64,000 nt of DNA, taken from contig JBDHCY010000001.1 in assembly GCA_039591795.1 (NCBI GenBank), forward strand, positions 10,887 to 74,886. The letters run 5' to 3'. Both the position numbers and the translations under genes were made by a program. Under the pieces are notes generated by a model that saw only the letters and a list, made by a program, of their open reading frames with translations, was not told the DNA's origin and ran no database searches. Positions 4,381 through 63,346 of the stretch are shown one piece after another; within the stretch, counting starts at the first letter, position 1, and every line of letters begins with the position of its first letter. The stretch comes from Gemmatimonadota bacterium. GTDB lineage: Bacteria; Gemmatimonadota; Gemmatimonadetes; Gemmatimonadales; GWC2-71-9.

Positions 4381-5159
4381 TCGACCCCGCGGCGGCAGTG
4401 CTCCTCGCCGCTGGGGTCTCCGCCGTCGCCGTGCTGGCTCGCTGGCTCACAGTTGGCGGGGCCATGGCGGCCTCTTTGGTCGGCGCTGCCGTGCTCTTCG
4501 GTGCCGGCTGGGGTGGCGGTGCCATGCTCGCCACGTTCTTCGTCTCGGGGTCCCTCCTCTCTGGCATGAACGAGCGGGCGCGCGCCACGCGGACGGCCGA
4601 TGCGAAGACAGGCCCGCGCGACACCGTCCAAGTCCTCGCCAACGGCCTCCCGGGTGCGTTCGCCGCACTGGTCGTTCCTCCCCTGTTCCCACCCACTGTT
4701 GTCGTGGGTGGGGCGATCGCCGCCGCGGCCGCTGACACCTGGGCCACGGAAATCGGAATGGCTCTGGGGAGACGGCCCAGACTCATCACCACGCTCCAGC
4801 CCGTGCCTCCGGGCACATCGGGAGGCGTCACACTCACCGGAACGGCGGCCGCGCTGGCCGGGGCGGCCACGGTTGGCGCCATCGCGATGCCGTTTGGGCT
4901 CCCGCCACCGCTCCTTCCGATCGTGATCACGGCTGGCTTGACCGGTGCCTTGCTCGACTCATTCGCAGGCGCGATACTCCAGGGACGATTCCGGTGCGAG
5001 CGATGCAACGTCGAAACCGAGCGCCGACTACACGAATGCGGCACGTTGACGGTTCGGGTGCGCGGCCTCAGCTGGCTCACCAACGACGGCGTGAACCTTC
5101 TGGCCTCGTCTTGCGGCGCTGGATTGGCCTTCCTGTGGCTGTCGCTACGCTGGGCCTAG
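4377..5159 (+). CDS. DUF92/TMEM19-like integral membrane protein
   Basis: 260 aa. The GTG overlaps the anti-sigma stop (GTGA). Polytopic, with an AAAAADTWATEIG motif recalled from the DUF92 family. Confidence 0.65.
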   Translation: MIDPAAAVLLAAGVSAVAVLARWLTVGGAMAASLVGAAVLFGAGWGGGAMLATFFVSGSLLSGMNERARATRTADAKTGPRDTVQVLANGLPGAFAALVVPPLFPPTVVVGGAIAAAAADTWATEIGMALGRRPRLITTLQPVPPGTSGGVTLTGTAAALAGAATVGAIAMPFGLPPPLLPIVITAGLTGALLDSFAGAILQGRFRCERCNVETERRLHECGTLTVRVRGLSWLTNDGVNLLASSCGAGLAFLWLSLRWA

Positions 5160-5530
5160 CGTGCATCGGCAGCGACGGCCTCGTCGTGGAGAGCGACCGG
5201 GGAACCATCGGTGTCGGTTCGAGCCCAACGCTCGATCTGGTCGGATCGTGGCGCCACACGGTGATCGTGCAGACCGACGGCGGTGACGTTCAGTCGAGCG
5301 AGACGGCGTGGACGTTCGAGGACGACCTCGACTGTGTGCGCGTCGTCACGCTGCGCTCGGTCTCTTTCGGCGGCGTGCTCGACATCCTTCCGCGAACCTG
5401 TACCTACACGGCGAGCACCGCGTCGGTGACAATCGTCTTCACCGACGACCCGACCTCGGTCACCTTCGACGCTCGAGTCGTGCGCGACACGTTGTACCTC
5501 GACGACTTCGCTTTCGAGCGCATCCGCTAA
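5111..5530 (+). CDS. small putative lipoprotein (hypothetical)
   Basis: TTG 5111 gives MRRWIGLPVAVATLGLAC, a lipobox-type signal peptide. No recognisable domain. Both the start and whether the gene is real are uncertain. Confidence 0.4.
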   Translation: MRRWIGLPVAVATLGLACIGSDGLVVESDRGTIGVGSSPTLDLVGSWRHTVIVQTDGGDVQSSETAWTFEDDLDCVRVVTLRSVSFGGVLDILPRTCTYTASTASVTIVFTDDPTSVTFDARVVRDTLYLDDFAFERIR

Positions 5531-5532
5531 CC

Positions 5533-6723
5533 ATGCCAGTTACTCGACGATGGGATGTCGTCGTCGCGGGCGCCGGCCCCGCGGGCGCCGCCACTGCCGC
5601 ATTCCTCGCCGAAGCGGGCTGCCGCACTTTGCTCATCGACCGAGCCCGCTTCCCGCGTGAAAAGCCGTGCAGCGACTACGTGGCCCCCGGTGCCCGCTCG
5701 GTCCTCGCGAAGCTCGGAGTGCTCGGCGCGCTCGAGCAGCGCGGCGAGCCCGTGCACGGCATGGAGGTCACGTCTCCGTCCGGCACGACGCTGCGAGGGG
5801 ACTATCGGGGAGGCTCGGGGTTCGGGATGCCCCGCCGCGAGCTCGACGCGCAGCTCGTCGAGCTCGCCGTTGCCCGCGGCGCTACGCTGTGGGAGGAGAC
5901 CCGCGCAGAGGGACTCACCGTCACGCTGCGCGGGGCGCCCGCCTTGCGGGCACGTCACGCTGGCCACACTCACACCCTGAGCGCCCGGGTCGTCGTGGGC
6001 GCCGACGGGTTGCGGTCCGCGATCGCGCGCGCCCTGGGCGGGGGGACACGTGTCGGCCCACGGCGCCTGGCCCTCGTTGCGCAGATCGCCGACGTCGAGG
6101 GCCTCCACGGCGTGGGCGAGATCTTCGTCGCAGGAGGCGGCTATGTCGGAGTGGCACCGCTCCCCGGCGGAGCCGCGAACGTCGCCGTCGTGCAGCCGGC
6201 CGCGCGGGCCCACCGCGGGATGAGCGGGAGCGCGCTCTTTTGGACGGAGCTGGCCCATCATCCCGACCTGCACAGCCGTGTTCGGGATCGGCCGGTGCTC
6301 CGCGGTGTGCTGGCAACCGGTCCCTTCGGCTGGCGCAGCCAGCGAGCGGTGGGCAACGGGGTCATTCTCGTGGGAGACGCTGCCCATTTCTTCGATCCGT
6401 TGACGGGCGACGGCGTCGCCGCCGCATTGCACGGCGCGGCGCTCGCCGCGCAGGTGATTCTCCAGGCACTCGGGCGGCTCGACGTGCCGACACGGCGAGC
6501 CCTTGCACCGTACGAGACGATGCATCGGCGACTCTTCGGGGGACGCTGGTCGGCCCAGCGGCTGTTGGGCGCGGCCGTTGCACATCCCCGCCTCTTCGAC
6601 CTCGGCCTGCGGGCACTGACCCAGCGTCGGGAGCTCGGCGACCGCATCGTCCAGTTCGCCGGGAGCGTCGCCCCGGTGAGCAGTCTCTTTCAGCCCCTCG
6701 CCACCAATCCGAGGCCCGCGTGA
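5533..6723 (+). CDS. FAD-dependent oxidoreductase, geranylgeranyl reductase/UbiH-like family
   Basis: Start at ATG 5533. Dinucleotide fold DVVVAGAGPAGAATAAFLAEAG, and later GDAAHFFDPLTGDG. Confidence 0.8.
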   Translation: MPVTRRWDVVVAGAGPAGAATAAFLAEAGCRTLLIDRARFPREKPCSDYVAPGARSVLAKLGVLGALEQRGEPVHGMEVTSPSGTTLRGDYRGGSGFGMPRRELDAQLVELAVARGATLWEETRAEGLTVTLRGAPALRARHAGHTHTLSARVVVGADGLRSAIARALGGGTRVGPRRLALVAQIADVEGLHGVGEIFVAGGGYVGVAPLPGGAANVAVVQPAARAHRGMSGSALFWTELAHHPDLHSRVRDRPVLRGVLATGPFGWRSQRAVGNGVILVGDAAHFFDPLTGDGVAAALHGAALAAQVILQALGRLDVPTRRALAPYETMHRRLFGGRWSAQRLLGAAVAHPRLFDLGLRALTQRRELGDRIVQFAGSVAPVSSLFQPLATNPRPA

Positions 6724-7202
6724 CCAAGCCACCCGTTGACGCACCGAACTTCCGGCAGCTACTCGGTCGTTTCGCGACGGGCGTCGCCGTGCTCACCACT
6801 CGAGGAGTCGATGGCGAGCCGACCGGAACGACCGTGAATACCCTCACCTCAGTGTCTCTCTCTCCGCCGCTTGTGCTCATCTGCCTCGACCGGCAGCACG
6901 ACAGCCACGCCGCGTTGAGCGGAGCCGAGTGTTTCGCCCTGAACATTCTGGCGAACGACCAAGAGGAGCTGTCGCGACGGTTCGCGGCGGAGGACCGTCA
7001 CTTTCAGGGAGTTGGCTACCGGCTGAGCGATAGCGGTGTCCCGCTGCTGGACGGCGCGCTCGCCTACATCGAATGCGAGCTCGAGAAGCAAGTCGAGGCT
7101 GGCGACCACACCGTATTCTTCGGTCGGGTGGTCGGTGGGGAGGTGGCGGAGCGCCGGCCACTGCTCTACTACCGCGGCGGCTATGCGGCGCTGGCCGGGT
7201 GA
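6720..7202 (+). CDS. flavin reductase family protein
   Basis: GTG 6720 overlaps the upstream TGA (GTGA). FATGVAVLTT...TVNTLTSVSLSPPLVLICL...LYYRGGY is typical of NAD(P)H-flavin reductase domains. Confidence 0.8.
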   Translation: MTKPPVDAPNFRQLLGRFATGVAVLTTRGVDGEPTGTTVNTLTSVSLSPPLVLICLDRQHDSHAALSGAECFALNILANDQEELSRRFAAEDRHFQGVGYRLSDSGVPLLDGALAYIECELEKQVEAGDHTVFFGRVVGGEVAERRPLLYYRGGYAALAG

Positions 7203-7873
7203 TCCCCACCGAGACGCTCGATCGCGTGGATGCGCCGGCCGGGGTCGTGCGAGCGTCGTTGGCCGACATCCGTCGAGCCAATGCTCTCTTTGGCGGCCGC
7301 CGGGCGGTTATTGGCGCGTTGAAGCCGCTCTTTCGTGGCGCGGTGCCGGGAGATCGCTTGACGCTGCTGGATCTCGGAACCGGCGCCGGTGACATTCCAC
7401 GAGCGGCGGCACGTCTCGCGGCACGTTACGGCGTGCGGCTCGAGACCATCGGCGTGGAGCATCACCGCACAGCGGCAGAAATGGCCCGCACCGCAGGCGT
7501 GACCCCGCTCGTTGCCGATGTCGAGTGGCTCCCTCTTCGCACACGATCGATCGATATTGTGATCATGAGCCAGCTCCTCCACCACGCGCCACGTGAGCGC
7601 GCCGTTGCCTGGATTCGCGCCGCCGATCGGGTTGCCCGACGCGCGGTCATCATCGCGGATCTACGCCGCGCACGGCTTGCGATGTGGGGTATCTGGCTCG
7701 TCTCATTTCCACTGGGGTTCCACCCTGTGAGTCGTCGCGACGGCGTGCTGTCGATCAAGAGAGGATTCACGCCATCCGAATTGACCGCTCTCCTCGCAGA
7801 GGCCGGCATCACAGCAACCGCGTTTCCCCGGCTCGGATGGCGCGTCGTGGCGGCATGGGCGCCCGTGGCCTGA
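7199..7873 (+). CDS. class I SAM-dependent methyltransferase
   Basis: GTG 7199 overlaps the upstream stop. SAM-binding motif I LLDLGTGAGDI and a later VIMSQLLHH. Confidence 0.75.
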   Translation: MIPTETLDRVDAPAGVVRASLADIRRANALFGGRRAVIGALKPLFRGAVPGDRLTLLDLGTGAGDIPRAAARLAARYGVRLETIGVEHHRTAAEMARTAGVTPLVADVEWLPLRTRSIDIVIMSQLLHHAPRERAVAWIRAADRVARRAVIIADLRRARLAMWGIWLVSFPLGFHPVSRRDGVLSIKRGFTPSELTALLAEAGITATAFPRLGWRVVAAWAPVA

Positions 7874-10494: not shown

Positions 10495-11205
10495 GTGGAC
10501 CGTCCTCCGTCTGGAGAGAACATGCCGTTTCGCACCACCCTCGCGAGCGGTTCGCTCGTGCCGAGTCCAGCTACGCCCAACGCGGGACCGCTGGGAGACG
10601 GGCACGAGCCTGGCGTCGACGAGCCGAACATGGTGAGCGTACGGAGCCGATTGGGTCGCCGCGCCCACCTTCGCGGCCTTTCGCTCGTCGAGCACGACCC
10701 GGACCGCGGCCTGCGCTGGCTCGCTGTCGCGGCCTGGCTCGCTCCTTCGTTCGGCGACGAGCACCGAGATTTCATTCGAGTACTGCGCGATGGCACCGAC
10801 CGTTGGCGCGCCGTGCAGCGCGCCCGCGATCTCGTCCACCGCTTCGCCGACTCCGCCGACGCCTGGCTTCTGCTCGGAGAGTCGTACCTCGGCGTGTATC
10901 GCCAGCCCGAGGCCCTAGCGGCATTCGAGCAGGCGTTGGCGATCGAAGAGCGGGCCGAGGCGGCGTTCGCAGCTGGGGGCATCTACCGCCGGCTCGGCCG
11001 GCACGCTGACGCCGCGGCACGATTCGCCCGGGCACATGCCGCGGGTTGGGGTCCGGACGCGCTCCTCGAAAACGCGCGCTCGCTGAGCGCGACGGGAGAG
11101 CGACAGGCAGCGGCCGCCGCGCTCGATCTCTGGGCATCACTGGTTCCGGGCGGCTCCGAGCGTGTGGCCGAGCTCAGGGAAGAATTGGGACTCCAGCCGG
11201 CATAG
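10495..11205 (+). CDS. TPR-like repeat protein (hypothetical)
   Basis: The C-terminal half carries TPR-like helices (AWLLLGESYLGVYRQPEALAAFEQALAI, GGIYRRLGRHADAAARFARA). The start is uncertain. The competing antisense ORF is Ser/Arg-rich low complexity. Confidence 0.5.
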   Translation: MDRPPSGENMPFRTTLASGSLVPSPATPNAGPLGDGHEPGVDEPNMVSVRSRLGRRAHLRGLSLVEHDPDRGLRWLAVAAWLAPSFGDEHRDFIRVLRDGTDRWRAVQRARDLVHRFADSADAWLLLGESYLGVYRQPEALAAFEQALAIEERAEAAFAAGGIYRRLGRHADAAARFARAHAAGWGPDALLENARSLSATGERQAAAAALDLWASLVPGGSERVAELREELGLQPA

Positions 11206-33432: not shown

Positions 33433-33948
33433 GTGGCTCCACGAACGAGTAAAGTGGCGAAGAAGACCGCGAAGAAGACGACCGGCCGTGTGAAGAAGGC
33501 CGCTGCGAAGACGGCCAAGCGGACCCGGAGCCGAGTCGCAAAGCAGGCCAAGGCGACGAGGGGCAAGGTCACGAGACAGGCAAAGGCAACGAGGAGCAGG
33601 GTCGCTAAGAAGGCGAAGGCGACGGGGAGCAAGGTCGCGAAGCGAGCCAAGGCAACCGGGAGCCGCGTCGCGAAACGCGCCAGGTCCACCGGCAGCAAGG
33701 TCGCCAAGCAGGCAAAGCGTGCGGCGACGAAGGCCGCAAAGTCGGCCAAGCGCACGGCGACCAAAGCCGCAACCACGGCGCGCAAGCGGGTGCGCAAGGC
33801 CGTCACCCGTGCCAAGGTCAAACGGGCGGTCAAGAAGACCGGCGCCGTCTTGAAGACTGCCGGAACGGCGGCCGCGGTGGCGGGCGTCAGCGCGGCGGCG
33901 GCCGCGACGGCCGATCAGATGACCCGGGGTCGGCGCAAGAAGAAGTAG
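33433..33948 (+). CDS. Lys/Ala-rich basic repeat protein (histone H1-like or 11-mer amphipathic repeat protein)
   Basis: GTG 33433 lies 3 nt after GGAGGA. 171 aa, about one-third Lys/Arg. Eight 11-aa repeats (AKATGSKVAKR type). The C-terminal Ala/Gly/Val stretch ends in RGRRKKK. An antisense ORF shares third codon positions, so the strand choice is not proven. Confidence 0.65.
   Translation: MAPRTSKVAKKTAKKTTGRVKKAAAKTAKRTRSRVAKQAKATRGKVTRQAKATRSRVAKKAKATGSKVAKRAKATGSRVAKRARSTGSKVAKQAKRAATKAAKSAKRTATKAATTARKRVRKAVTRAKVKRAVKKTGAVLKTAGTAAAVAGVSAAAAATADQMTRGRRKKK
33514..33777 (+). repeat. eight tandem 33-bp (11-codon) coding repeats
   Basis: Units begin at 33514, 33547, 33580, 33613, 33646, 33679, 33712 and 33745. 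The consensus is GCC AAG GCN ACN GGN AGC AAG GTC GCN AAG NNN, with many synonymous differences between units. Confidence 0.85.
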
Positions 33949-53796: not shown

Positions 53797-55755
<1,959 letters not shown>

Positions 55756-55825
55756 GGAAACGCTCCGTGTAAAACGCTCATCGAACGAAGAACCGCCACC
55801 ACGCGACGCCGGTGGGGCGGCTGTC

Positions 55826-56284
55826 TCACTGCGACTCGCGCCGCAGGTACTCGTATAGCGCTCGCGCATCGTCGACGCTGACCCCCATGTTCGCCATCGG
55901 AGTCGCATACTCGGCGAGGAGCGCTCGCGCGGTCGAATCAGTCCTGAGCATCGAATCGGGGTTGCTGATCATCGCAATCATCCATTCGTACGACCGCCGC
56001 TCCGTCACCCCCTGGAGATCGGGACCGGTCAGTCTCTCACCGATCTTGTGGCAGCCCACGCAGGCCTTCGTCTGGAAGAGCTCCGCCCCCTGGTCGGCGA
56101 GGGCGGCGTCGATCGGGCCACTCGGTGCCGGGGACGCCGCAGGCGCTGCAGCAGCCGGCTCCGGCGGAGGCTCTGCACGCTGATCCGCCGCCGGCTGCTC
56201 GCCTGCACATGCGTGCATGCCAGTCAATACCAAAGCGGTCGCAAGACCACGATTCATGAATCGCTCCATGTCATTGCGCTGCAC
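55826..56284 (-). CDS. c-type cytochrome (monoheme)
   Basis: Signal/lipoprotein-like N-terminus (LVLTGMHAC), heme-binding CVGCH, and a distal Met region (ANMGV). Immediately upstream of nosZ. Confidence 0.8.
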   Translation of the reverse strand: MQRNDMERFMNRGLATALVLTGMHACAGEQPAADQRAEPPPEPAAAAPAASPAPSGPIDAALADQGAELFQTKACVGCHKIGERLTGPDLQGVTERRSYEWMIAMISNPDSMLRTDSTARALLAEYATPMANMGVSVDDARALYEYLRRESQ

Positions 56285-56327
56285 TTGTCACCCCCTGTGC
56301 GCGACCCGGGGCGGCGTGGCAAGGCCA

Positions 56328-56371
56328 TTGCGCCAGCCCCAACGAAAACGATATAATCATGAAGTTATCGT
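56328..56371 (+). promoter_or_regulatory. candidate sigma-70-type promoter with overlapping inverted repeat upstream of the Rrf2 gene
   Basis: TTGCGC (56328-56333), N18, then TATAAT (56352-56357). Inverted repeat ACGATA (56348-56353)/TATCGT (56366-56371) with a 12-nt spacer. Sits in the only AT-rich patch of the nos/rrf2 divergent region. Confidence 0.3.
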
Positions 56372-56435
56372 GAAAATTGCCCGAGCAAACGTGAAGGTAG
56401 AGACAAATGCCGCGCTCGCAAACACTAAGGGATCG

Positions 56436-56852
56436 ATGCTATCGGGTACCGCTGAATACGCGCTGAGGGCCGTCGTCCACATCGCCAGAACCCCCGGCGA
56501 GCGGCCCATCACCGCCAAGGAGCTGTCGCGAGCGGTAGGGGTCCCGCGCAACTACCTGGGCAAGGTACTGCACGAGCTGGTTCGAGCCGGGGTGCTCCGC
56601 TCCACGCGAGGCAAGCTTGGCGGTTTCCGCCTCGCCCTCCCGCCCGGTGAGCTGTCACTCGTGCAGATCGTCTCGCTGTTCGACCCGATCGGCGAGCGAC
56701 GGCGGTGTCTGCTCGGCAGGCCGGAATGCAGTGAGGTCAATCCATGCCCCATGCACCATCGCTGGAAGGAAGTCGCCGAGCAGATCTCTCGCTTTTTCAG
56801 TGAGACGACGCTCGCCGACGTGCTTGCGAACGGCTCGCTCTCCCCCGGGTAG
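56436..56852 (+). CDS. Rrf2 family transcriptional regulator (Fe-S type, NsrR/IscR-like)
   Basis: ATG 56436. MLSGTAEYALRAVVHIA wHTH N-terminus. Cys cluster C-x6-C-x5-C (RRRCLLGRPECSEVNPCPMHH). Confidence 0.85.
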   Translation: MLSGTAEYALRAVVHIARTPGERPITAKELSRAVGVPRNYLGKVLHELVRAGVLRSTRGKLGGFRLALPPGELSLVQIVSLFDPIGERRRCLLGRPECSEVNPCPMHHRWKEVAEQISRFFSETTLADVLANGSLSPG

Positions 56853-56968
56853 GGTCGGCCCCCGAGACACGTCACCTTGCTTCAACCCTCGCTAGAGGGT
56901 CATTCTCCCCGGAGTGCCCGGCGCGCCCGCAGTCGTGCGCTAGCTCTTTCCACCACGCGAGTGGACCC

Positions 56969-57967
56969 ATGCGCTGGACTCGAATCGCAGGAGTTGGCCG
57001 CCACGTGCCCGAGCGAGTCGTGACCAATCACGACCTCGAGGCGCTGATGGACACGACCGATGCGTGGATCCAAGAACGCACCGGCATCAAACAGAGGCAC
57101 TTCGCCGAGCCTGGGACTGGTTCCGCCGACCTCGGTGCAGCGGCGGCTCGAGCTGCCCTCGTCGATGCTGGTTGGGAGGTGGGGGACGTCCAGTTCATCG
57201 TCTTTGCCACGCTCTCCCCAGACATGTTCTTCCCCGGCAGCGGTGTGTTGCTCCAGCGAGAACTGGGTCTCGACGGGATCGGCGCGCTCGACGTGCGCAA
57301 CCAGTGCACGGGCTTCATTTACGGACTCGCTGCCGCGGACGCGATGATCCGAGTCGGGATGTATGACCGCATGCTCCTCATCGGTGCAGAGGTGCACTCG
57401 GCTGGCCTGCGCATGGATACGAAAGGCCGAGACACCGCGGTCCTGTTTGGTGACGGCGCCGGTGCGGTCTGCCTCGAAGCCACCGACGCCACCGACGGCA
57501 GCCGTCTGATCCGGCACAGGCTGCATGCCGATGGGCGGCACGCGGAGCAACTCTGTCTGGTGGCGCCCGGTTGCCGGCACCGTCCGTTCATTACGAAGGA
57601 GATGATCGACGAAGGGCTCACCGTGCCGCACATGAACGGCCGCGAGGTCTTCCGCAACGCCGTGACGCGGTTCCCCGAAGTGATCATGGAAGTGCTCACG
57701 GCAGAGGGTATCGAAAAGGAGGACCTCGACGTCGTGATCCCACACCAAGCGAACCTCCGCATCACCGAGGCCGTACGTCAACGCGCCGGCCTCCCCGAGG
57801 AGAAGGTGGTGAGCAACATCGAGCGCTATGGCAACACGACCGCAGCCAGCATACCGATTGCCATGAGCGAGGCGGTCGAAGATGGTCGCGTGCACCGTGG
57901 GAGTCTCGTCTGCCTCGCGGCGTTCGGGTCGGGGTTCACGTGGGGAGCTTCCCTTTTGCGGTACTGA
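56969..57967 (+). CDS. fabH: beta-ketoacyl-ACP synthase III
   Basis: 332 aa. Catalytic triad contexts [10 protein letters not shown] (Cys), IPHQANLRI (His) and [12 protein letters not shown] (Asn). Confidence 0.9.
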
Positions 57968-57974
57968 GCGCACC

Positions 57975-59696
57975 GTGCATGGTGGTGAGAGAGTCGCCGA
58001 CGTCCTAGCGCGCCAAGGCGTCGGCGTGCTATTCACCCTCTGTGGCGGCCACATCTCGCCGATCCTCGTGGCCGCGAACGCGCGCGGCATCCGGATCGTT
58101 GACGTGCGGAACGAGGCGACCGCCGTCTTCGCAGCCGACGCGCTCACCCGGCTCAGCGGGCAACCAGGTGTCGCTCTCGTGACGGCTGGCCCGGGCGCAA
58201 CGAACACGATCACCGCGCTCAAGAACGCACAGCTCGCACAGTCTCCTGTGGTCCTACTCGTTGGCGCGGCGCCCACGACGCTCCGGGGTCGGGGCGCACT
58301 CCAGGACATCGACCAGCGGGCCCTCTTCCGACCCCATGCGAAGAGCACGACGTCGGTACACCGCGTGGCCGATCTCGCGCCCGCCCTCGAGCGGGCATTC
58401 GGCACCGCTGCGAGCGGGATCCCCGGTCCGGTAGTCCTCGAATGCCCGGTGGACCTGCTATACGACGAGTCGACCGTGCGATCCTGGTATGAGCGGGCTT
58501 CTGCGGGCCGCTCGATCGGCGCAAGCCTCCAGCGCTGGTATCTCTCGAGGCACGTCGACCGCTTGTTCGCCGGGTCCGATCAATCCACTACCCGCCCCAT
58601 CCGGCCCGTCGGCCGGGCGTCACGAAGTGACGTCCGCCGAGCCGCCCGTCTCCTGTCGCGCGCGTCTCGGCCGGTGCTCCTCGTCGGCAGCCAGGCGACG
58701 CTGGCGACGGAGCGGCTCGATGCGCTGACCGCTTCGATCGACGCGCTTGGCATTCCCGTCTATCTGTCCGGCATGGCGCGCGGGCTTCTCGGGACGGCGC
58801 ATCCTCTGCACCTCCGGCACCACCGGACGGAGGCGCTCCGCGAGGCTGACGTCGTGATTCTCGCCGGCGTTCCGTGTGATTTTCGGCTGAACTACGGCCG
58901 TCGCATCTCCAGACGGGCGGCGCTGATCGCCGCCAATCGAAGTGTACGCGACCTCAATCTCAACCGACGCCCGACCGTCGGAGCGGTCGCGGATCCGGCT
59001 CGTTTCGTGGAGCGAATCGCGGAAGCACGGCGCGCCCGGGAGGGCTCATGGACCCCGTGGCTCGAGGCGTTGCGGCAACGGGACCGCGACCGTGATGTCG
59101 AGATCTCACAGATCGCCACCGAGCCGACGGAGTTCATCAATCCCGTGGCGCTGTGCCTGGAGCTCGAACGCTCGATCGGCCCCGAGGCGGTCATCGTAGC
59201 AGATGGCGGAGACTTCGTCGCCACGGCGTCTTATGTCGTCCGGCCACGCGCACCTCTCTCGTGGCTCGATCCGGGTGTATTCGGCACGTTGGGCGGCGGG
59301 GGCGGCTTTGCTTTGGGTGCACGCCTCGCGCGACCCGATGCCGAAATCTGGATCGTCTACGGCGACGGTTCCGCCGGGTACAGCTTGATGGAATTCGATA
59401 CGTTCGCACGGCACGGCGTTCCCGTCGTCGCGGTGGTGGGCAACGACGGTGGGTGGACACAGATCGCGCGTGAGCAGGTTCCCCTCCTGGGCGATCCGGT
59501 CGGAACGGTGCTGGCCCGCACCGCATACGAGCGGGTGGCCGAGGCGTGCGGCGGATTGGGGCTCAGGGTCGACCGCCTCGACGATGTGCCTCGTGTTCTG
59601 GCGGAGGCGCGCGCGGCGGCGCACGCCGGCCGGCCGGTGTTGGTCAATGCGATGATCGGCCGGACGGAGTTCCGCAAGGGTGCCATTTCGATGTAG
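57975..59696 (+). CDS. thiamine diphosphate-dependent enzyme (acetolactate synthase large-subunit-like)
   Basis: GTG 57975 lies 8 nt after the fabH stop. N-terminal Pyr domain ([13 protein letters not shown]...[13 protein letters not shown]). ThDP motif [32 protein letters not shown]. Confidence 0.85.
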
Positions 59697-59711
59697 CGTG
59701 TCGATCGACTG
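59651..59711 (+). repeat. direct repeat copy A (last 15 codons, stop and 15 nt of the ThDP-enzyme gene)
   Basis: 57/61 nt identical to 61578-61638. The last 35 nt (59677-59711) are identical and include the palindrome GTCGATCGAC (59700-59709). Confidence 0.9.
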
Positions 59712-61577
59712 AGCACTCTCTCACCTCAGCCGAGTTCGCTTTACTCCAATTGCTGACTACACCGATAGAGCGAGCTGGGGCTTTTCCACCGCCACTGCCC
59801 TGTGAGGCTGTTGATTTTTTGCATCCAGGGGCCAAACGATTGATAGATCATCGTACAATGGTGGTGGAACGCCGGCCACGCTGGTGTCGTGGGCACCCGT
59901 TCGCCTGCATGGTACCAAATGACCTGAGGCGTGTGTGGCAGGATGGTAGCCAGATCCGACATCGTTTCGAGCTTCCGGTGGATTATGCGCTGCGGACCGT
60001 AGAACTCCATTCGTAGTTCCGGCGTCCCGTAGAGGAACGGGCTCGGACCCAAGGAGTAGAACTCGAAATGTTCGGGATACTCGCGATAGATGAATTTGTG
60101 AATCGCCACTTCGATGCGCGGGACACGGAGGCTGCCACCTACGAGTGCCAGGAGATTGATGGCGGCAAACACGTAGAACGCCAAGCGCACCCATCTCGCA
60201 TGACCGAGGAAGGGATTGTCGCGGTCTCCGGCCGAGTACCACGAGCGAGGGATGAGGAACACGAACATCGCCAAGGCAAGGTGGGTGACCGGCGTGAGGA
60301 ACCGCAGCTCCTTGTGTGCCAACACGACGTGCACCAGCACGAACAAACCTGCCGTCCAGGTAAGCAGATTCCGCGGTCGACTGATACAGAAAAGGACTCC
60401 CGCGCCTAGGAGAAGGATGCCCATCGGTTGGAGCGGCACGCCGAGGAAGTAGTAATACCACGGCTCAGTTCCAAAAGTGGCCGCTCGGCCCTCGAGTAAG
60501 TTGCTCTGGAGGTAGTTCCACGGTGTAACCCCGAATGCGCCGTAGCCCCACCAGTCGATCAACAACCCTACGCCCACCGTCGCGAGGATTGCCGTGCCAC
60601 CGACAACGAGCTTGCGGAACGGCGTTCGAGAGATCAGCACCATCCACAGGCCGAGCGCGGCGATCACGATGCCCATTTGGTAGCGAAACTCGAAGCTCAG
60701 TCCCAACAAAAGGCCGGACAATGCCAGACCCGAGTACGTGAAGACCATTGGTCCCACGAACGGCTCGGAGGATTCGTGCTGCCGCAGGACGAGATTCCGA
60801 TCGCGCCTCAGTAGGAACAGCGCCGAGAGCCCCAGGAGCAAGAATATCGACGCAAAGTTCTCGGAGGACGTTCGGGTATGGAGCGTGGGGAAGAACCAGT
60901 ACAGGCCAAAGATGATGGCTAACCATTTTCGTTGTGCATCGAGAGGGAGCCATTCGGCGATCGTGATGCAGAACAGGGCGGTGGCGAGAATGCCCAGAAT
61001 CGCGGACCCCAGCCGCAAGAGCCGATCCTGGTGAAACGGATTCTCCAGGCCGACGGCCTCGAACCCGGTGAGCGCGGCGGCATAGAGAGCTGGCTGGATC
61101 CACGGCCTAACGCGCTCGCGGTACTCCCATGGCAAGCGATGCTCGTTGACGGGACGCGTCTTGAACCGGGCGAGCTCCAACGTCTGGAAATGTTGGTCCG
61201 GCTGGTAGAAGGTGGTTTGGACGAGGGCCGCGAGAACGTAGAACACCGCCCCGATCGAAAAGTAGCGGACCAGGTAGCGCTTGAATCCCGGGTCAATGCG
61301 CAGGGCAGTTGCTATCATGCTCGTGAGGAGGCAGCGGCTTGGGGCGCAGACCTCCCTTGCGGGCGATCCGCCACGCGATTCGCACTCGAGGTTTGCCCCC
61401 AGATGGTGGGGGATGATACCCTGGACCGGACGACTAGCAAGACCTCCAGCATCTCCCGGGGCGTAAGGGTCACCAGGACTCGCGGAATGCTCGCGTACAC
61501 GGCACCGTGTCCCGGTTGTCGCGGAGGTGGGCACCGACGGTGGGTGGACACACCTCGCACGGGAGCAAGTTCCCTCT
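59712..61577. other. lower-GC insert between the direct repeats (GT22 gene plus displaced gene fragment)
   Basis: Hand counts of 60-nt lines inside give about 48-57% GC (lines at 59761, 60061, 60421, 60841). Flanking lines (59581, 62041) give about 78-80%. Identity between the repeat copies stops abruptly at 59711 and 61638. Confidence 0.55.
59741..61318 (-). CDS. GT22 (Alg9/PIG-B-like) polytopic mannosyltransferase family protein
   Basis: Trimmed to MIATALRIDPGF. N-terminal YQPDQHFQTLELA (the DE-type motif region) and HKELRF, recalled as the GT22 HKE-x-RF motif. About 11 TM segments. A/T-ending codons are common, unlike the neighbouring genes. Confidence 0.8.
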   Translation of the reverse strand: MIATALRIDPGFKRYLVRYFSIGAVFYVLAALVQTTFYQPDQHFQTLELARFKTRPVNEHRLPWEYRERVRPWIQPALYAAALTGFEAVGLENPFHQDRLLRLGSAILGILATALFCITIAEWLPLDAQRKWLAIIFGLYWFFPTLHTRTSSENFASIFLLLGLSALFLLRRDRNLVLRQHESSEPFVGPMVFTYSGLALSGLLLGLSFEFRYQMGIVIAALGLWMVLISRTPFRKLVVGGTAILATVGVGLLIDWWGYGAFGVTPWNYLQSNLLEGRAATFGTEPWYYYFLGVPLQPMGILLLGAGVLFCISRPRNLLTWTAGLFVLVHVVLAHKELRFLTPVTHLALAMFVFLIPRSWYSAGDRDNPFLGHARWVRLAFYVFAAINLLALVGGSLRVPRIEVAIHKFIYREYPEHFEFYSLGPSPFLYGTPELRMEFYGPQRIIHRKLETMSDLATILPHTPQVIWYHAGERVPTTPAWPAFHHHCTMIYQSFGPWMQKINSLTGQWRWKSPSSLYRCSQQLE

Positions 61578-61623
61578 GATGATCGGGCGGATGGAGTTCC
61601 GTGAGGGTGCCATTTCGATGTAG
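61487..61623 (+). pseudogene. displaced, frame-broken 3' fragment of a ThDP-enzyme gene homolog
   Basis: 61500-61574 translates RHRVPVVAEVGTDGGWTHLAREQVP, against [25 protein letters not shown] at 59409-59483. About 160 nt are then missing relative to 59490-59650, with a frame shift. It ends MIGRMEFREGAISM*, against [14 protein letters not shown]. Confidence 0.7.
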
Positions 61624-61638
61624 CGTGTCGATCGACTG
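61578..61638 (+). repeat. direct repeat copy B
   Basis: See copy A. The 35-nt identical core is 61604-61638. It lies 10 nt upstream of the ggt ATG. Confidence 0.9.
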
Positions 61639-61648
61639 GGAGCGTTCT

Positions 61649-63346
61649 ATGCATCGGCCTTGGTTATGGATCTCAATCGCAGTTGTCACGTTGCCCGTCG
61701 ACGCGCCGGCGCAATCGGGCCGCACATCGGCGCCGGCGAAGCAAGCGATGGTATCGACTGCGCACTTTCTCGCCTCGGCCGTGGGCAATCGGGTCCTCGA
61801 AGAGGGTGGCAACGCGGTTGACGCGGCGGTCGCGACCGCGTTTGCGCTGGCCGTCGTGCACCCGGCCGCCGGGAACATCGGGGGCGGCGGTTTCCTCGTC
61901 TATCACGGAGCCGACGGTCTCGTGACGGCATTCAATTTCCGAGAAAGAGCTCCCTTGGCTGCCACCGAGCGGATGTATCTCGATGAGAGAGGTGAGATTC
62001 GGAACAACACGAATCATGAAGGGCTCCTCAGCGTCGGGGTGCCGGGTACCGTGGCCGGCCTCTGGCTCGCACATCGCCGCCTGGGCAGCAAGCCGTGGCG
62101 AGCACTCGTTCAGCCCGCGATCGAGCTCGCCGAGCAGGGGTTTCCCTCGTCCTGGGCAACGCAGAGAATGCAGGAATGGCTGGTGGAGAACGGCGACTCG
62201 TTCCCGTCGACGGCCCGAGCGTTTCTCAAGAACGGCACGTCCCCCTATGAGCCCGGCGAGGTATGGAAGCAGCCCGACCTCGCCAAGACCCTTAAGCGTA
62301 TCCGGAAGGACGGCCACGACGGGTTCTACAGGGGGACAACGGCGAGGTTGATCGCCGATTTCATGCGAGCGCACGGGGGGCTGATCACCGAGGAGGACCT
62401 CGCAGCTTACACAGCGGTGGAAGTGGCCCCCATCCACGGAACGTTCCGCGGCCACGACGTCTACGCCATGTCACCGCCGAGCTCCGGTGGAGTGGCGCTC
62501 GTCGAGATGCTGAACATCCTCGAGGGCTACGATCTGAAGTCCATCGGCCACAACACCGCTGTCTACCTCCACCTGCTCACTGAGGCCATGCGCCGCGCGT
62601 TCGCTGACCGTGCGCAACATCTCGGTGATCCCGATTTCAACCCGGAGATGCCCGTCGCTCGACTGACGTCCAAGGCATATGCCGCCGAGCTCCGCGCGGG
62701 CATCGATCCCTACCGTGCGTCGACCAGCGACGCGCAGCGGTTCAACGACCTTGCCGAGGGCGACCATACGACCCATTTCTCGGTGGTGGACCGTGACGGT
62801 AACGCGGTCGCGCTCACCTACACGCTCGAGTATGGCTATGGTTCTCGCATCGTCGTCGAGGGAGCGGGATTTCTTCTCAACAACGAAATGGGAGACTTCA
62901 ATCCCGTTCCCGGATTGACCGACTCCACAGGGATGATCGGGACGCGGCCGAACCTCGTCGAGCCAGGCAAGCGCATGCTATCCAGCATGACGCCAACCAT
63001 CGTGGCTAGGGACGGCCAGCCGGTGCTCGTACTTGGGAGTCCTGGTGGGCGGACGATCATCAATACCGTTCTTCAGGTCATCCTCAATGTGCTCGAGCAT
63101 GGGATGGACGTGGCCGATGCGGTCGAGGCGGGCCGAATCGACCACGAATGGCTTCCCGACGTGACGACTTTCGAGCGGTGGATGATCTCTGCCGATACCC
63201 GTCGACTCTTCGAAGCCATGGGGCATCGTGTGCGGGTCGGCGGCAGGCAGGGGAGTGTGATGGCGATCTACATCGACGAGGAGGCCGGTTTGCTGTTCGG
63301 GGCGGCAGACTCGCGAGACTTCAACGCGCGCGCAGTCGGCCACTGA
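61649..63346 (+). CDS. ggt: gamma-glutamyltranspeptidase
   Basis: ATG 61649 with a signal peptide. AAGNIGGGGF, autoprocessing/catalytic Thr context DHTTHFSVVD, and the small-subunit motif GSPGGRTIINTV. Confidence 0.95.
   Translation: MHRPWLWISIAVVTLPVDAPAQSGRTSAPAKQAMVSTAHFLASAVGNRVLEEGGNAVDAAVATAFALAVVHPAAGNIGGGGFLVYHGADGLVTAFNFRERAPLAATERMYLDERGEIRNNTNHEGLLSVGVPGTVAGLWLAHRRLGSKPWRALVQPAIELAEQGFPSSWATQRMQEWLVENGDSFPSTARAFLKNGTSPYEPGEVWKQPDLAKTLKRIRKDGHDGFYRGTTARLIADFMRAHGGLITEEDLAAYTAVEVAPIHGTFRGHDVYAMSPPSSGGVALVEMLNILEGYDLKSIGHNTAVYLHLLTEAMRRAFADRAQHLGDPDFNPEMPVARLTSKAYAAELRAGIDPYRASTSDAQRFNDLAEGDHTTHFSVVDRDGNAVALTYTLEYGYGSRIVVEGAGFLLNNEMGDFNPVPGLTDSTGMIGTRPNLVEPGKRMLSSMTPTIVARDGQPVLVLGSPGGRTIINTVLQVILNVLEHGMDVADAVEAGRIDHEWLPDVTTFERWMISADTRRLFEAMGHRVRVGGRQGSVMAIYIDEEAGLLFGAADSRDFNARAVGH

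Follow-up and report, generated by a model that had tools for sequence, protein, structure and literature searches.

Scars of additive integration, in which added DNA comes to lie between two copies of a gene end, are already known as a kind, and the locus described here may be a further example, of modest interest. It lies in a 64,000-nucleotide stretch from a Gemmatimonadota bacterium (contig JBDHCY010000001.1, positions 10,887 to 74,886; assembly GCA_039591795.1), hereafter the window, in which the 3' end of a gene for a thiamine diphosphate (ThDP)-dependent enzyme occurs twice, once in the intact gene and once, in decayed form, just before a gamma-glutamyltransferase gene (ggt), with one gene for a GT22-like glycosyltransferase between the two copies. 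The same layout of intact gene, inserted DNA and 3'-end pseudogene copy is found in the icd-e14 (or phage 21)-icdC region of Escherichia coli K-12 (PMC13626634). In its passage on this pair, the same source, citing Hill et al. 1989, describes the differences between icd and icdC as largely synonymous (PMC13626634). However, the prophage e14 measures 15 kb and brings its own integrase, whereas the window holds 1.8 kb with one glycosyltransferase gene and no recombinase. The prophage interrupts icd and supplies a replacement 3' end. In the window the join lies 15 nt past the stop codon, so that nothing needs restoring, and the perfect core of the repeat is the 3' end of the duplication, unlike the arrangement in e14/icd.

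Two further systems involve no recombinase supplied by the element. In conjugation experiments with E. coli, circles carrying part of the lacZ end integrated by a single crossover and gave end duplications of 109-950 bp flanking the insert, true homology-facilitated illegitimate recombination (HFIR) being much the rarer of the two (PMC3240628). Both the geometry and the length range of this Campbell-type integration fit the 305 nt duplicated in the window. That system is a laboratory construct, whereas the event in the window is natural and old (~12% overall divergence between the copies, with decay), and its circle and source are hypothetical. A displacement model based on HFIR has been proposed for orphaned 3' ends in the effector-immunity arrays of type VI secretion systems (T6SS) and in Rhs loci (PMC5361080); a homologous anchor is combined there with an illegitimate join, so that foreign genes are added and the old 3' end is orphaned downstream, as may have happened here. 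While the T6SS and Rhs loci encode polymorphic toxins under diversifying selection, the anchor in the window is a housekeeping-type ThDP gene and the cargo a GT-C glycosyltransferase gene. The window would offer a clean natural case, from a bacterium that is uncultivated and rich in GC, in which one gene was added beside a conserved gene without mobile-element machinery and the displaced gene end is still readable as a dated scar.

The duplicated gene end and its two copies

The two copies, A at the end of the ThDP gene and B next to ggt (Table 1), are direct repeats. Segments 59651-59711 and 61578-61638 are identical at 57/61 positions, the former comprising the last 46 nt of the ThDP gene, whose stop ends at 59696, and 15 nt beyond it. 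The perfect core at their right-hand end contains the last six ThDP codons, the TAG stop and CGTGTCGATCGACTG, which includes the 10-nt palindrome GTCGATCGAC. A further homologous block lies to the left (59407-59483 versus 61498-61574; 65/77 identical), and copy B as a whole is equivalent to 305 nt of copy A, i.e., the last 290 nt of the ThDP gene and 15 nt downstream. The duplication starts (59407/61498) at codon position 2, an arbitrary internal point, and ends just past the stop; further left than 61498, no resemblance to the ThDP gene was found. Between the end of copy B and the ATG of ggt (61649) there are 10 nt, the GGAG ribosome-binding site starting at the last base of the repeat. A preliminary description, made from the sequence alone, had reported the 61-nt repeat with its 35-nt core, stop codon and palindrome as well as the position of copy B 10 nt before ggt, and both the alignment and the coordinates bear it out; the left-hand block had escaped that description.

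The match between the copies has blastn E values of ~1e-18 to 1e-21, and 0/100 shuffles of the window gave a match. In a self-comparison of the 64 kb the A/B pair is the sole dispersed repeat. The core itself occurs twice in the window and never in the shuffles, and an exact search of a metagenome contig collection gave 0 matches; it is thus not the dispersed repeat that had been envisaged as an alternative. The only other internal repeat in the window, at 33527-33715, consists of two adjacent units of ~125 nt with 76% identity and is tandem-like.

The window was taken from a metagenome assembly, and an exact repeat at one orthologous locus (L005, see below) proved to be a scaffold-gap artefact, which makes an artefact worth considering here. 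Contigs of the same species from other assemblies match the window at ~99.9% identity and contain both junctions, and three independent assemblies of the species agree in this arrangement. One (L084; JGI 3300041079) covers the ThDP gene, copy A and GT22; another (L091; NCBI GCA_039590515.1) covers the Rrf2-FabH-ThDP-GT22 row, and a third from the latter assembly (L083) covers GT22, copy B and ggt. Junction A was therefore assembled independently twice (L084, L091) and junction B once (L083), which excludes an artefact of assembly. Moreover, substitutions and a deletion distinguish the copies, and differences of this sort are not produced by assemblers. E values of about 1e-20 speak against chance similarity; we assign a negligible probability to either explanation. 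No insert-less variant was seen among the same-species contigs.

Copy B lacks the 5' ~1.4 kb of the ThDP gene and a further ~167 nt (59484-59650), and its two blocks lie in different frames. In addition, the GND of the ThDP/Mg motif is changed to GTD, with loss of the motif Asn. By these sequence features, copy B is what remains of a ThDP 3' end, a pseudogene relic both truncated and frameshifted. The earlier observation that the ThDP 3' end is duplicated and that its copies bracket a single GT22 gene is thereby upheld, with the addition that the copy by ggt is a dead relic, so that at least one parental genome would have had the ThDP gene directly followed by ggt. This gene order is attested by the relic alone.

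The relic keeps an open frame of 14 codons at 61579-61623 (MIGRMEFREGAISM), which terminates with the original stop codon 25 nt short of the start of ggt, and GGGAG sits 13 nt upstream of its ATG. That this frame could preserve translational coupling to ggt is pure speculation.

Table 1. Features of the ThDP-ggt locus, in window coordinates
Feature	Coordinates	Strand	Remarks
FabH-like ketoacyl synthase III gene	56969..57967	+	FabH-ThDP pair conserved in nearest relative
ThDP-dependent enzyme gene, 573 aa, intact	57975..59696	+	Pfam TPP_enzyme_N/M/C
Copy A of the duplicated segment	59407..59711	+	sequence comparison; outgroup states at 15/16 sites
Perfect core of 35 nt, copy A	59677..59711	+	two copies only in window
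Bracketed segment, 1786 nt, one gene	59712..61497		lowest-GC stretch of its length in window
GT22-like GT-C glycosyltransferase gene, 525 aa	59741..61318	-	PF03901, HKELRF motif, AlphaFold2 (AF2) model
Non-coding stretch upstream of GT22, 179 nt	61319..61497		one weak sigma70-like match, minus strand 61440-61413
Copy B, pseudogene relic of ThDP 3' end	61498..61638	+	two blocks, 84% and 93% identical
Perfect core of 35 nt, copy B	61604..61638	+	abuts ggt GGAG ribosome-binding site
Gamma-glutamyltransferase gene (ggt), 565 aa, signal peptide	61649..63346	+	PF01019 1.4e-166; TIGR00066 above cut-off

Origin of the structure

Tentatively, and with somewhat less than even confidence, we regard the structure as the scar of a single homology-driven additive integration and not as a site-specific element. 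DNA from a related bacterium, with a GT22 gene next to a partial ThDP orthologue that kept its stop and ~15 nt beyond, would have entered by either of two routes. A circle would have integrated into the resident ThDP gene by a single (Campbell-type) crossover, or a linear fragment would have been joined through one homologous and one illegitimate end (HFIR). The outcome would be an intact ThDP gene, GT22 with its own 179-nt upstream region and a truncated ThDP 3' end attached to ggt; this truncated copy has decayed, with 16 substitutions, loss of the motif Asn, the ~167-nt deletion and a frameshift, while the 35 nt by ggt are still identical to copy A. Neither route needs an enzyme encoded by the element. 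The duplication would end just past the stop because the homology between the partners ends there. The equivalent of 305 nt duplicated on the two sides of the added DNA, with an arbitrary inner endpoint, fits an additive integration, and at 61497|61498 sequence inspection, made without a donor sequence, revealed no recognisable microhomology. As to the recombination route, the donor and the status of GT22, not ggt, as the newcomer, these are what we infer.

The differences between the copies carry information on their history. There are 9 synonymous and 8 nonsynonymous changes (dN/dS 0.25; Fisher p=0.012; dS ~0.38), distributed 4:3:10 over codon positions 1, 2 and 3 (10/17 at the third), a pattern at odds with purely neutral decay, and this synonymous bias indicates that much of the divergence arose while both copies were working genes. 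It is expected if two diverged alleles met in the event, which could have been the case, or if a diverged allele replaced copy A at a later time. When polarised with two very distant outgroups (L085 and L086), copy A matches these at 15/16 differing sites; the derived states at these sites, including every amino-acid change and the loss of the motif Asn, are in copy B, the decaying one. Identity climbs toward the 3' end, from 84% to 93% and then to the perfect 35 nt. The difference between the blocks is not significant (p=0.12), nor is a perfect run of 35 nt anywhere in the alignment (p=0.11); a run placed exactly at the ggt-proximal end has p=0.007, and the gradient is suggestive, not proven.

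A dN/dS value below 1 would also fit a period with two functional paralogues. By this account, an intragenomic duplication would have placed the ThDP gene with its 15-nt trailer, functional in both copies, around GT22, and the ggt-side copy would then have lost its 5' 1.4 kb and decayed; a concentration of 15/16 changes in copy B is typical of a redundant duplicate, and the composition of GT22 bears no foreign mark. However, more steps are required (besides a duplication and a deletion, GT22 would have to come to lie precisely on the duplication boundary, 59711|59712), and the missing 5' part leaves no trace in 61319-61497. Furthermore, at a dS of ~0.38 the perfect core and the identical 15-nt trailer would require gene conversion, and in the DNA covered no second complete copy lies near the other 81 orthologues, only the Holophagales locus discussed below (L054) having a partial one. 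We consider a duplication within the genome unlikely.

The composition of the bracketed DNA had been put forward as a mark of foreign origin. The contrast given in the preliminary description (48-57% GC against 78-80% in the flanks) was wrong: windows of 200 nt give 54.5-65% for the insert and 64-72% for the flanks, and the segment as a whole has 59.9% GC versus 66.4% for the entire window. GT22 has the lowest total GC of the 44 genes (59.3% vs 65.9±2.2%), with 0.584/0.435/0.759 at codon positions 1/2/3. Its GC3 is nevertheless within about 1 sd of the mean (0.795; sd 0.033), as is its codon-usage score (synonymous-codon likelihood -1.11 vs -1.05; sd 0.07), so that the argument for foreign DNA from GC and codon usage fails. 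GT22 homologues (66-69% identity) on three unrelated contigs (L001, L002 and L105) have values of ~0.58/0.43/0.77 and are lower in GC than their own flanks, that of L105 being the lowest-GC gene there. The low GC of the gene is due to GC1 and GC2 in a hydrophobic polytopic membrane protein, and since the deficit lies at codon positions 1 and 2 and is shared by the homologues, the dip is uninformative on foreign origin. The case is a caution that a local GC dip can stem wholly from the amino-acid make-up of a membrane protein.

Apart from GT22, the bracketed segment holds 29 + 179 nt (208 nt) of non-coding DNA and shows no similarity to the rest of the window. The 179-nt stretch matches neither the ThDP gene, nor the upstream regions of GT22 homologues, nor the neighbour genes of the relatives. 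A scan of open reading frames (ORFs) and families found no integrase, transposase or tRNA in the bracketed DNA, GT22 being the only ORF with family support, and the tRNA search found none in the whole 64-kb window, in agreement with what the preliminary description had stated. Likewise, no Rfam match and no convincing terminator were found, and the promoter-like match of Table 1 is the only one.

Relatives with the same gene order were sought for ThDP, GT22 and ggt. In protein databases, identity drops from 100% straight to 72% (ThDP), 79% (ggt) and 69% (GT22). Each of the three nearest ThDP genes (L085, L086 and L106; 69-72% amino acid identity) is followed by a convergent DUF1801 gene and not by ggt; in the two nearest ggt contexts (L087/L088 and L089; 78-79%) an unrelated gene of 334-341 aa precedes ggt, and the nearest GT22 with context (69%) lies in a housekeeping region between genes for an HD-GYP protein and a multicopper oxidase. 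These nearest relatives of ThDP and ggt show neither a ThDP-ggt nor a ThDP-GT22 adjacency and are not syntenic, and none of the genes neighbouring ThDP, ggt or GT22 in the relatives occurs in the window. At 80 further ThDP loci (55-63% identity) found by scanning a genome collection there is no ggt, GT22 or FabH within 10 kb, which makes them unusable as an empty-site test. A GT22 scan of metagenome contigs yielded only relatives with <=35% identity, none of them adjoining ThDP or ggt.

The structure is symmetrical as to which side is foreign, and the event may be pictured the other way round, with GT22 native after the ThDP gene and with ggt and the DNA following it imported, a piece of the ThDP gene of the donor travelling along as a passenger. 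The donor would have had ThDP and ggt adjacent, and the left end of its fragment, lying by chance within its ThDP gene, would have been joined illegitimately at 61497|61498 and the right end homologously. The native-like codon usage of GT22 agrees with this, as do the dN/dS of 0.25, a value as for orthologues of two related species, and the presence of a convergent gene rather than ggt after ThDP in the three nearest relatives. Yet ggt is itself native in composition (GC3 0.770; codon score -1.065), the convergent gene of the relatives is DUF1801 and not GT22, and the GT22 closest to that of the window has an unrelated housekeeping neighbourhood. The right-hand junction would fall beyond the DNA covered. 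An import of ggt is, in our estimation, distinctly unlikely.

Several observations weigh against an additive integration that brought in GT22. The codon usage of this gene is native-like and nothing independent marks it as imported. Alleles diverging equally should share the synonymous changes between them, yet 15/16 differences polarise to copy B, albeit with very distant outgroups, and a later allelic replacement in copy A could also give the synonymous bias. Under a simple Campbell or HFIR event, divergence should be even along the duplication; instead, identity rises in the 3' direction. Finally, neither the empty site nor the donor order (ThDP then GT22) was found in the contigs and genomes scanned. 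The locus is a recombination scar with a pseudogene relic; it is neither a compositionally foreign islet nor a recognisable integrative element.

Gene-end relics at orthologous loci

A second copy of the own gene end was looked for at 82 orthologous ThDP loci (the 80 of the genome scan together with L085 and L086). In a Holophagales metagenome-assembled genome (MAG) (L054; CAWJGT010000009.1, 10849-18584), the last 915 nt of the ThDP gene and ~17 nt beyond recur 6.8 kb downstream. Identity between these repeats is 92.5% over the first 335 nt and 99% over the last 607 nt; the change is abrupt and lies, like a 36-nt indel, near 11156-11170. In the diverged part pN/pS is 0.26 (p=0.006), like in the window. 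The 5.9-kb insert between the repeats is lower in GC and codes for an ECF sigma factor and for FtsA-like, FtsZ-like and TIR-domain proteins. None of the ORFs of this insert has a recognised recombinase domain, although the repeats are 99% identical over 607 nt. The TIR-domain protein has PADLOC matches to ThsB/Aga TIR, and the insert may be an uncharacterised defence-type module. At the same locus, the 3' end and trailer of another gene (4976-6607) likewise recur ~0.5 kb downstream (6517-6785 and 7033-7303; 85% over 272 nt), and this genome may be prone to gene-end duplications.

The second case is found in an acidobacterial contig (L068; OY969112.1, 11692-13186), where a 44-nt ThDP relic stands 1.4 kb past the ThDP gene and immediately precedes the ribosome-binding site of a TspO gene. 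It has a perfect core of 21 nt, and the stop TGA is changed to GGA. The intervening 1.4 kb includes the two ends of a reverse gene for 1151 aa, which is intact in a related contig (L048; 11734-16732) where no relic is recognisable. The 915 nt of the first case are within the experimental range of 109-950 bp, and the 44 nt of the second are shorter.

Two other candidates were rejected. An exact 55-nt repeat of a ThDP end (L005:11691-11900) lies on either side of a run of N and reflects a scaffold overlap that was left unmerged, an example of how such a pattern can be artefactual. An apparent 3'-end repeat at another locus (L026) is an inverted repeat immediately past the gene end.

As a control, 560 ORFs from the same loci were treated alike, the ThDP genes being included and ~480 being other genes. 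Downstream gene-end relics occur at 2/82 ThDP loci versus about 2/480 other genes; the enrichment is not significant, and the recurrence is therefore treated as a lead and not as a finding. It is highly doubtful that the ThDP 3' end is a recurrent landing site (3/83 lineages) at which genes are added without a cargo-encoded recombinase and a relic is always left. Should the recurrence at this family in other phyla prove to exceed chance, hotspots of gene gain anchored by homology would be indicated; the present data do not establish this. In the window and in both other lineages alike, identity is highest at the end beside the downstream gene; the relic may have been kept for the expression signals of that gene, or a trans-acting recombinase may be at work there. 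The interest of the locus would rise if either the recurrence or a preferential keeping of the downstream end of the relic were confirmed at larger scale.

The occupation of the same gene end in two other lineages bears on the possibility of a decayed site-specific element of the type of e14 or phage 21 in icd, with the ThDP 3' end as bacterial attachment site (attB), the core as crossover region and everything but GT22 lost. Direct repeats of a gene 3' end bracketing extra DNA, a perfect core with a 10-nt palindrome and diverged homology outside it, and an architecture resembling icd-e14-icdC (PMC13626634) would all suit such an element. However, the 208 nt of non-coding DNA left hold neither an integrase nor a fragment of one, and even the L054 insert, between repeats 99% identical over 607 nt, shows no recognised recombinase domain. 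The relics differ in length (44 nt in L068, 305 nt in the window and 915 nt in L054), and the post-stop sequences and junctions of the three lineages share no motif; together with the lack of a recombinase, this argues against a site-specific attachment site and for recombination with arbitrary endpoints. Furthermore, a crossover in the core would fall after the stop, leaving the homology upstream of the core, on the side which does not restore the gene, and neither the native codon usage nor the enrichment, which is not significant, lends support. A decayed element is thus quite improbable in our view. The analogy with integrative islands drawn in the preliminary description holds for the bracketing by repeats but fails for the recombinase, the fixed attachment site and the foreign composition, and an additive integration by homology, as proposed above, is the reading that we prefer.

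Genes of the locus

The ThDP-dependent enzyme is identical to a database protein (P0093). It scores below the cut-off of every NCBIfam equivalog, the nearest models being acetolactate-synthase-like and 2-hydroxyacyl-CoA-lyase-like. The gene starts with GTG, 8 nt past the stop of the FabH-like gene. In the nearest relative (L085; 72% amino acid identity) a FabH-type fragment lies just upstream of the ThDP gene, and one same-species contig (L091) has the full Rrf2-FabH-ThDP row (window 56217-59696). The FabH-like and ThDP genes may form a functional unit.

GT22 is convergent with the ThDP gene, with 44 nt between the stops. A longer ORF of 637 aa is a mere read-through of the relic, full-length homologues having 520-546 aa. 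The protein matches PF03901 (E value 2.4e-32; 113 bits against a cut-off of 23.8), and residues D41, E65 and H335-K336-E337-x-R339-F340 are invariant or nearly so among 32 GT22 homologues. Its AF2 model has a pLDDT of 86 and a pTM of 0.89, and the top PDB matches of the model are ALG12 (TM 0.61-0.67) and ALG9 (0.63), followed by ArnT and oligosaccharyltransferases. At the sequence level there was no PDB match, and neither an NCBIfam model nor a PADLOC match was obtained. On the strength of the family match and the predicted fold, the assignment of the 525-aa protein as a GT22-like GT-C glycosyltransferase holds, and the single reverse Alg9/PIG-B-like gene with its HKELRF motif, as named in the preliminary description, is substantiated by the Pfam match, the motif and the model. 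With the eukaryotic GT22 enzymes (ALG9, ALG12 and PIG-B) the protein has in common PF03901, the HKExRF motif and the best superposition, on ALG12/ALG9, although the structural alignment with ALG12/ALG9 shows just 14-15% identity. Its sugar donor would presumably be a bacterial polyprenyl-phosphate sugar and not a dolichol-linked one. GT22 relatives on viral contigs or plasmids were not found.

One of the 99.9% identical contigs (L083:574-576; MAG GCA_039590515.1) is without 106 nt of GT22, corresponding to window 60519-60624. The loss shifts the frame and splits GT22 into two called genes; either some members of the population may do without the gene or the contig may contain an assembly error.

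Further upstream, a 703-aa ORF at 53797-56284, just before the Rrf2 regulator, resembles nitrous-oxide reductase (NosZ) when its translation is inspected by eye, and a small ORF overlapping it by ~80 nt has, by the same inspection, a CxxCH haem-binding motif.

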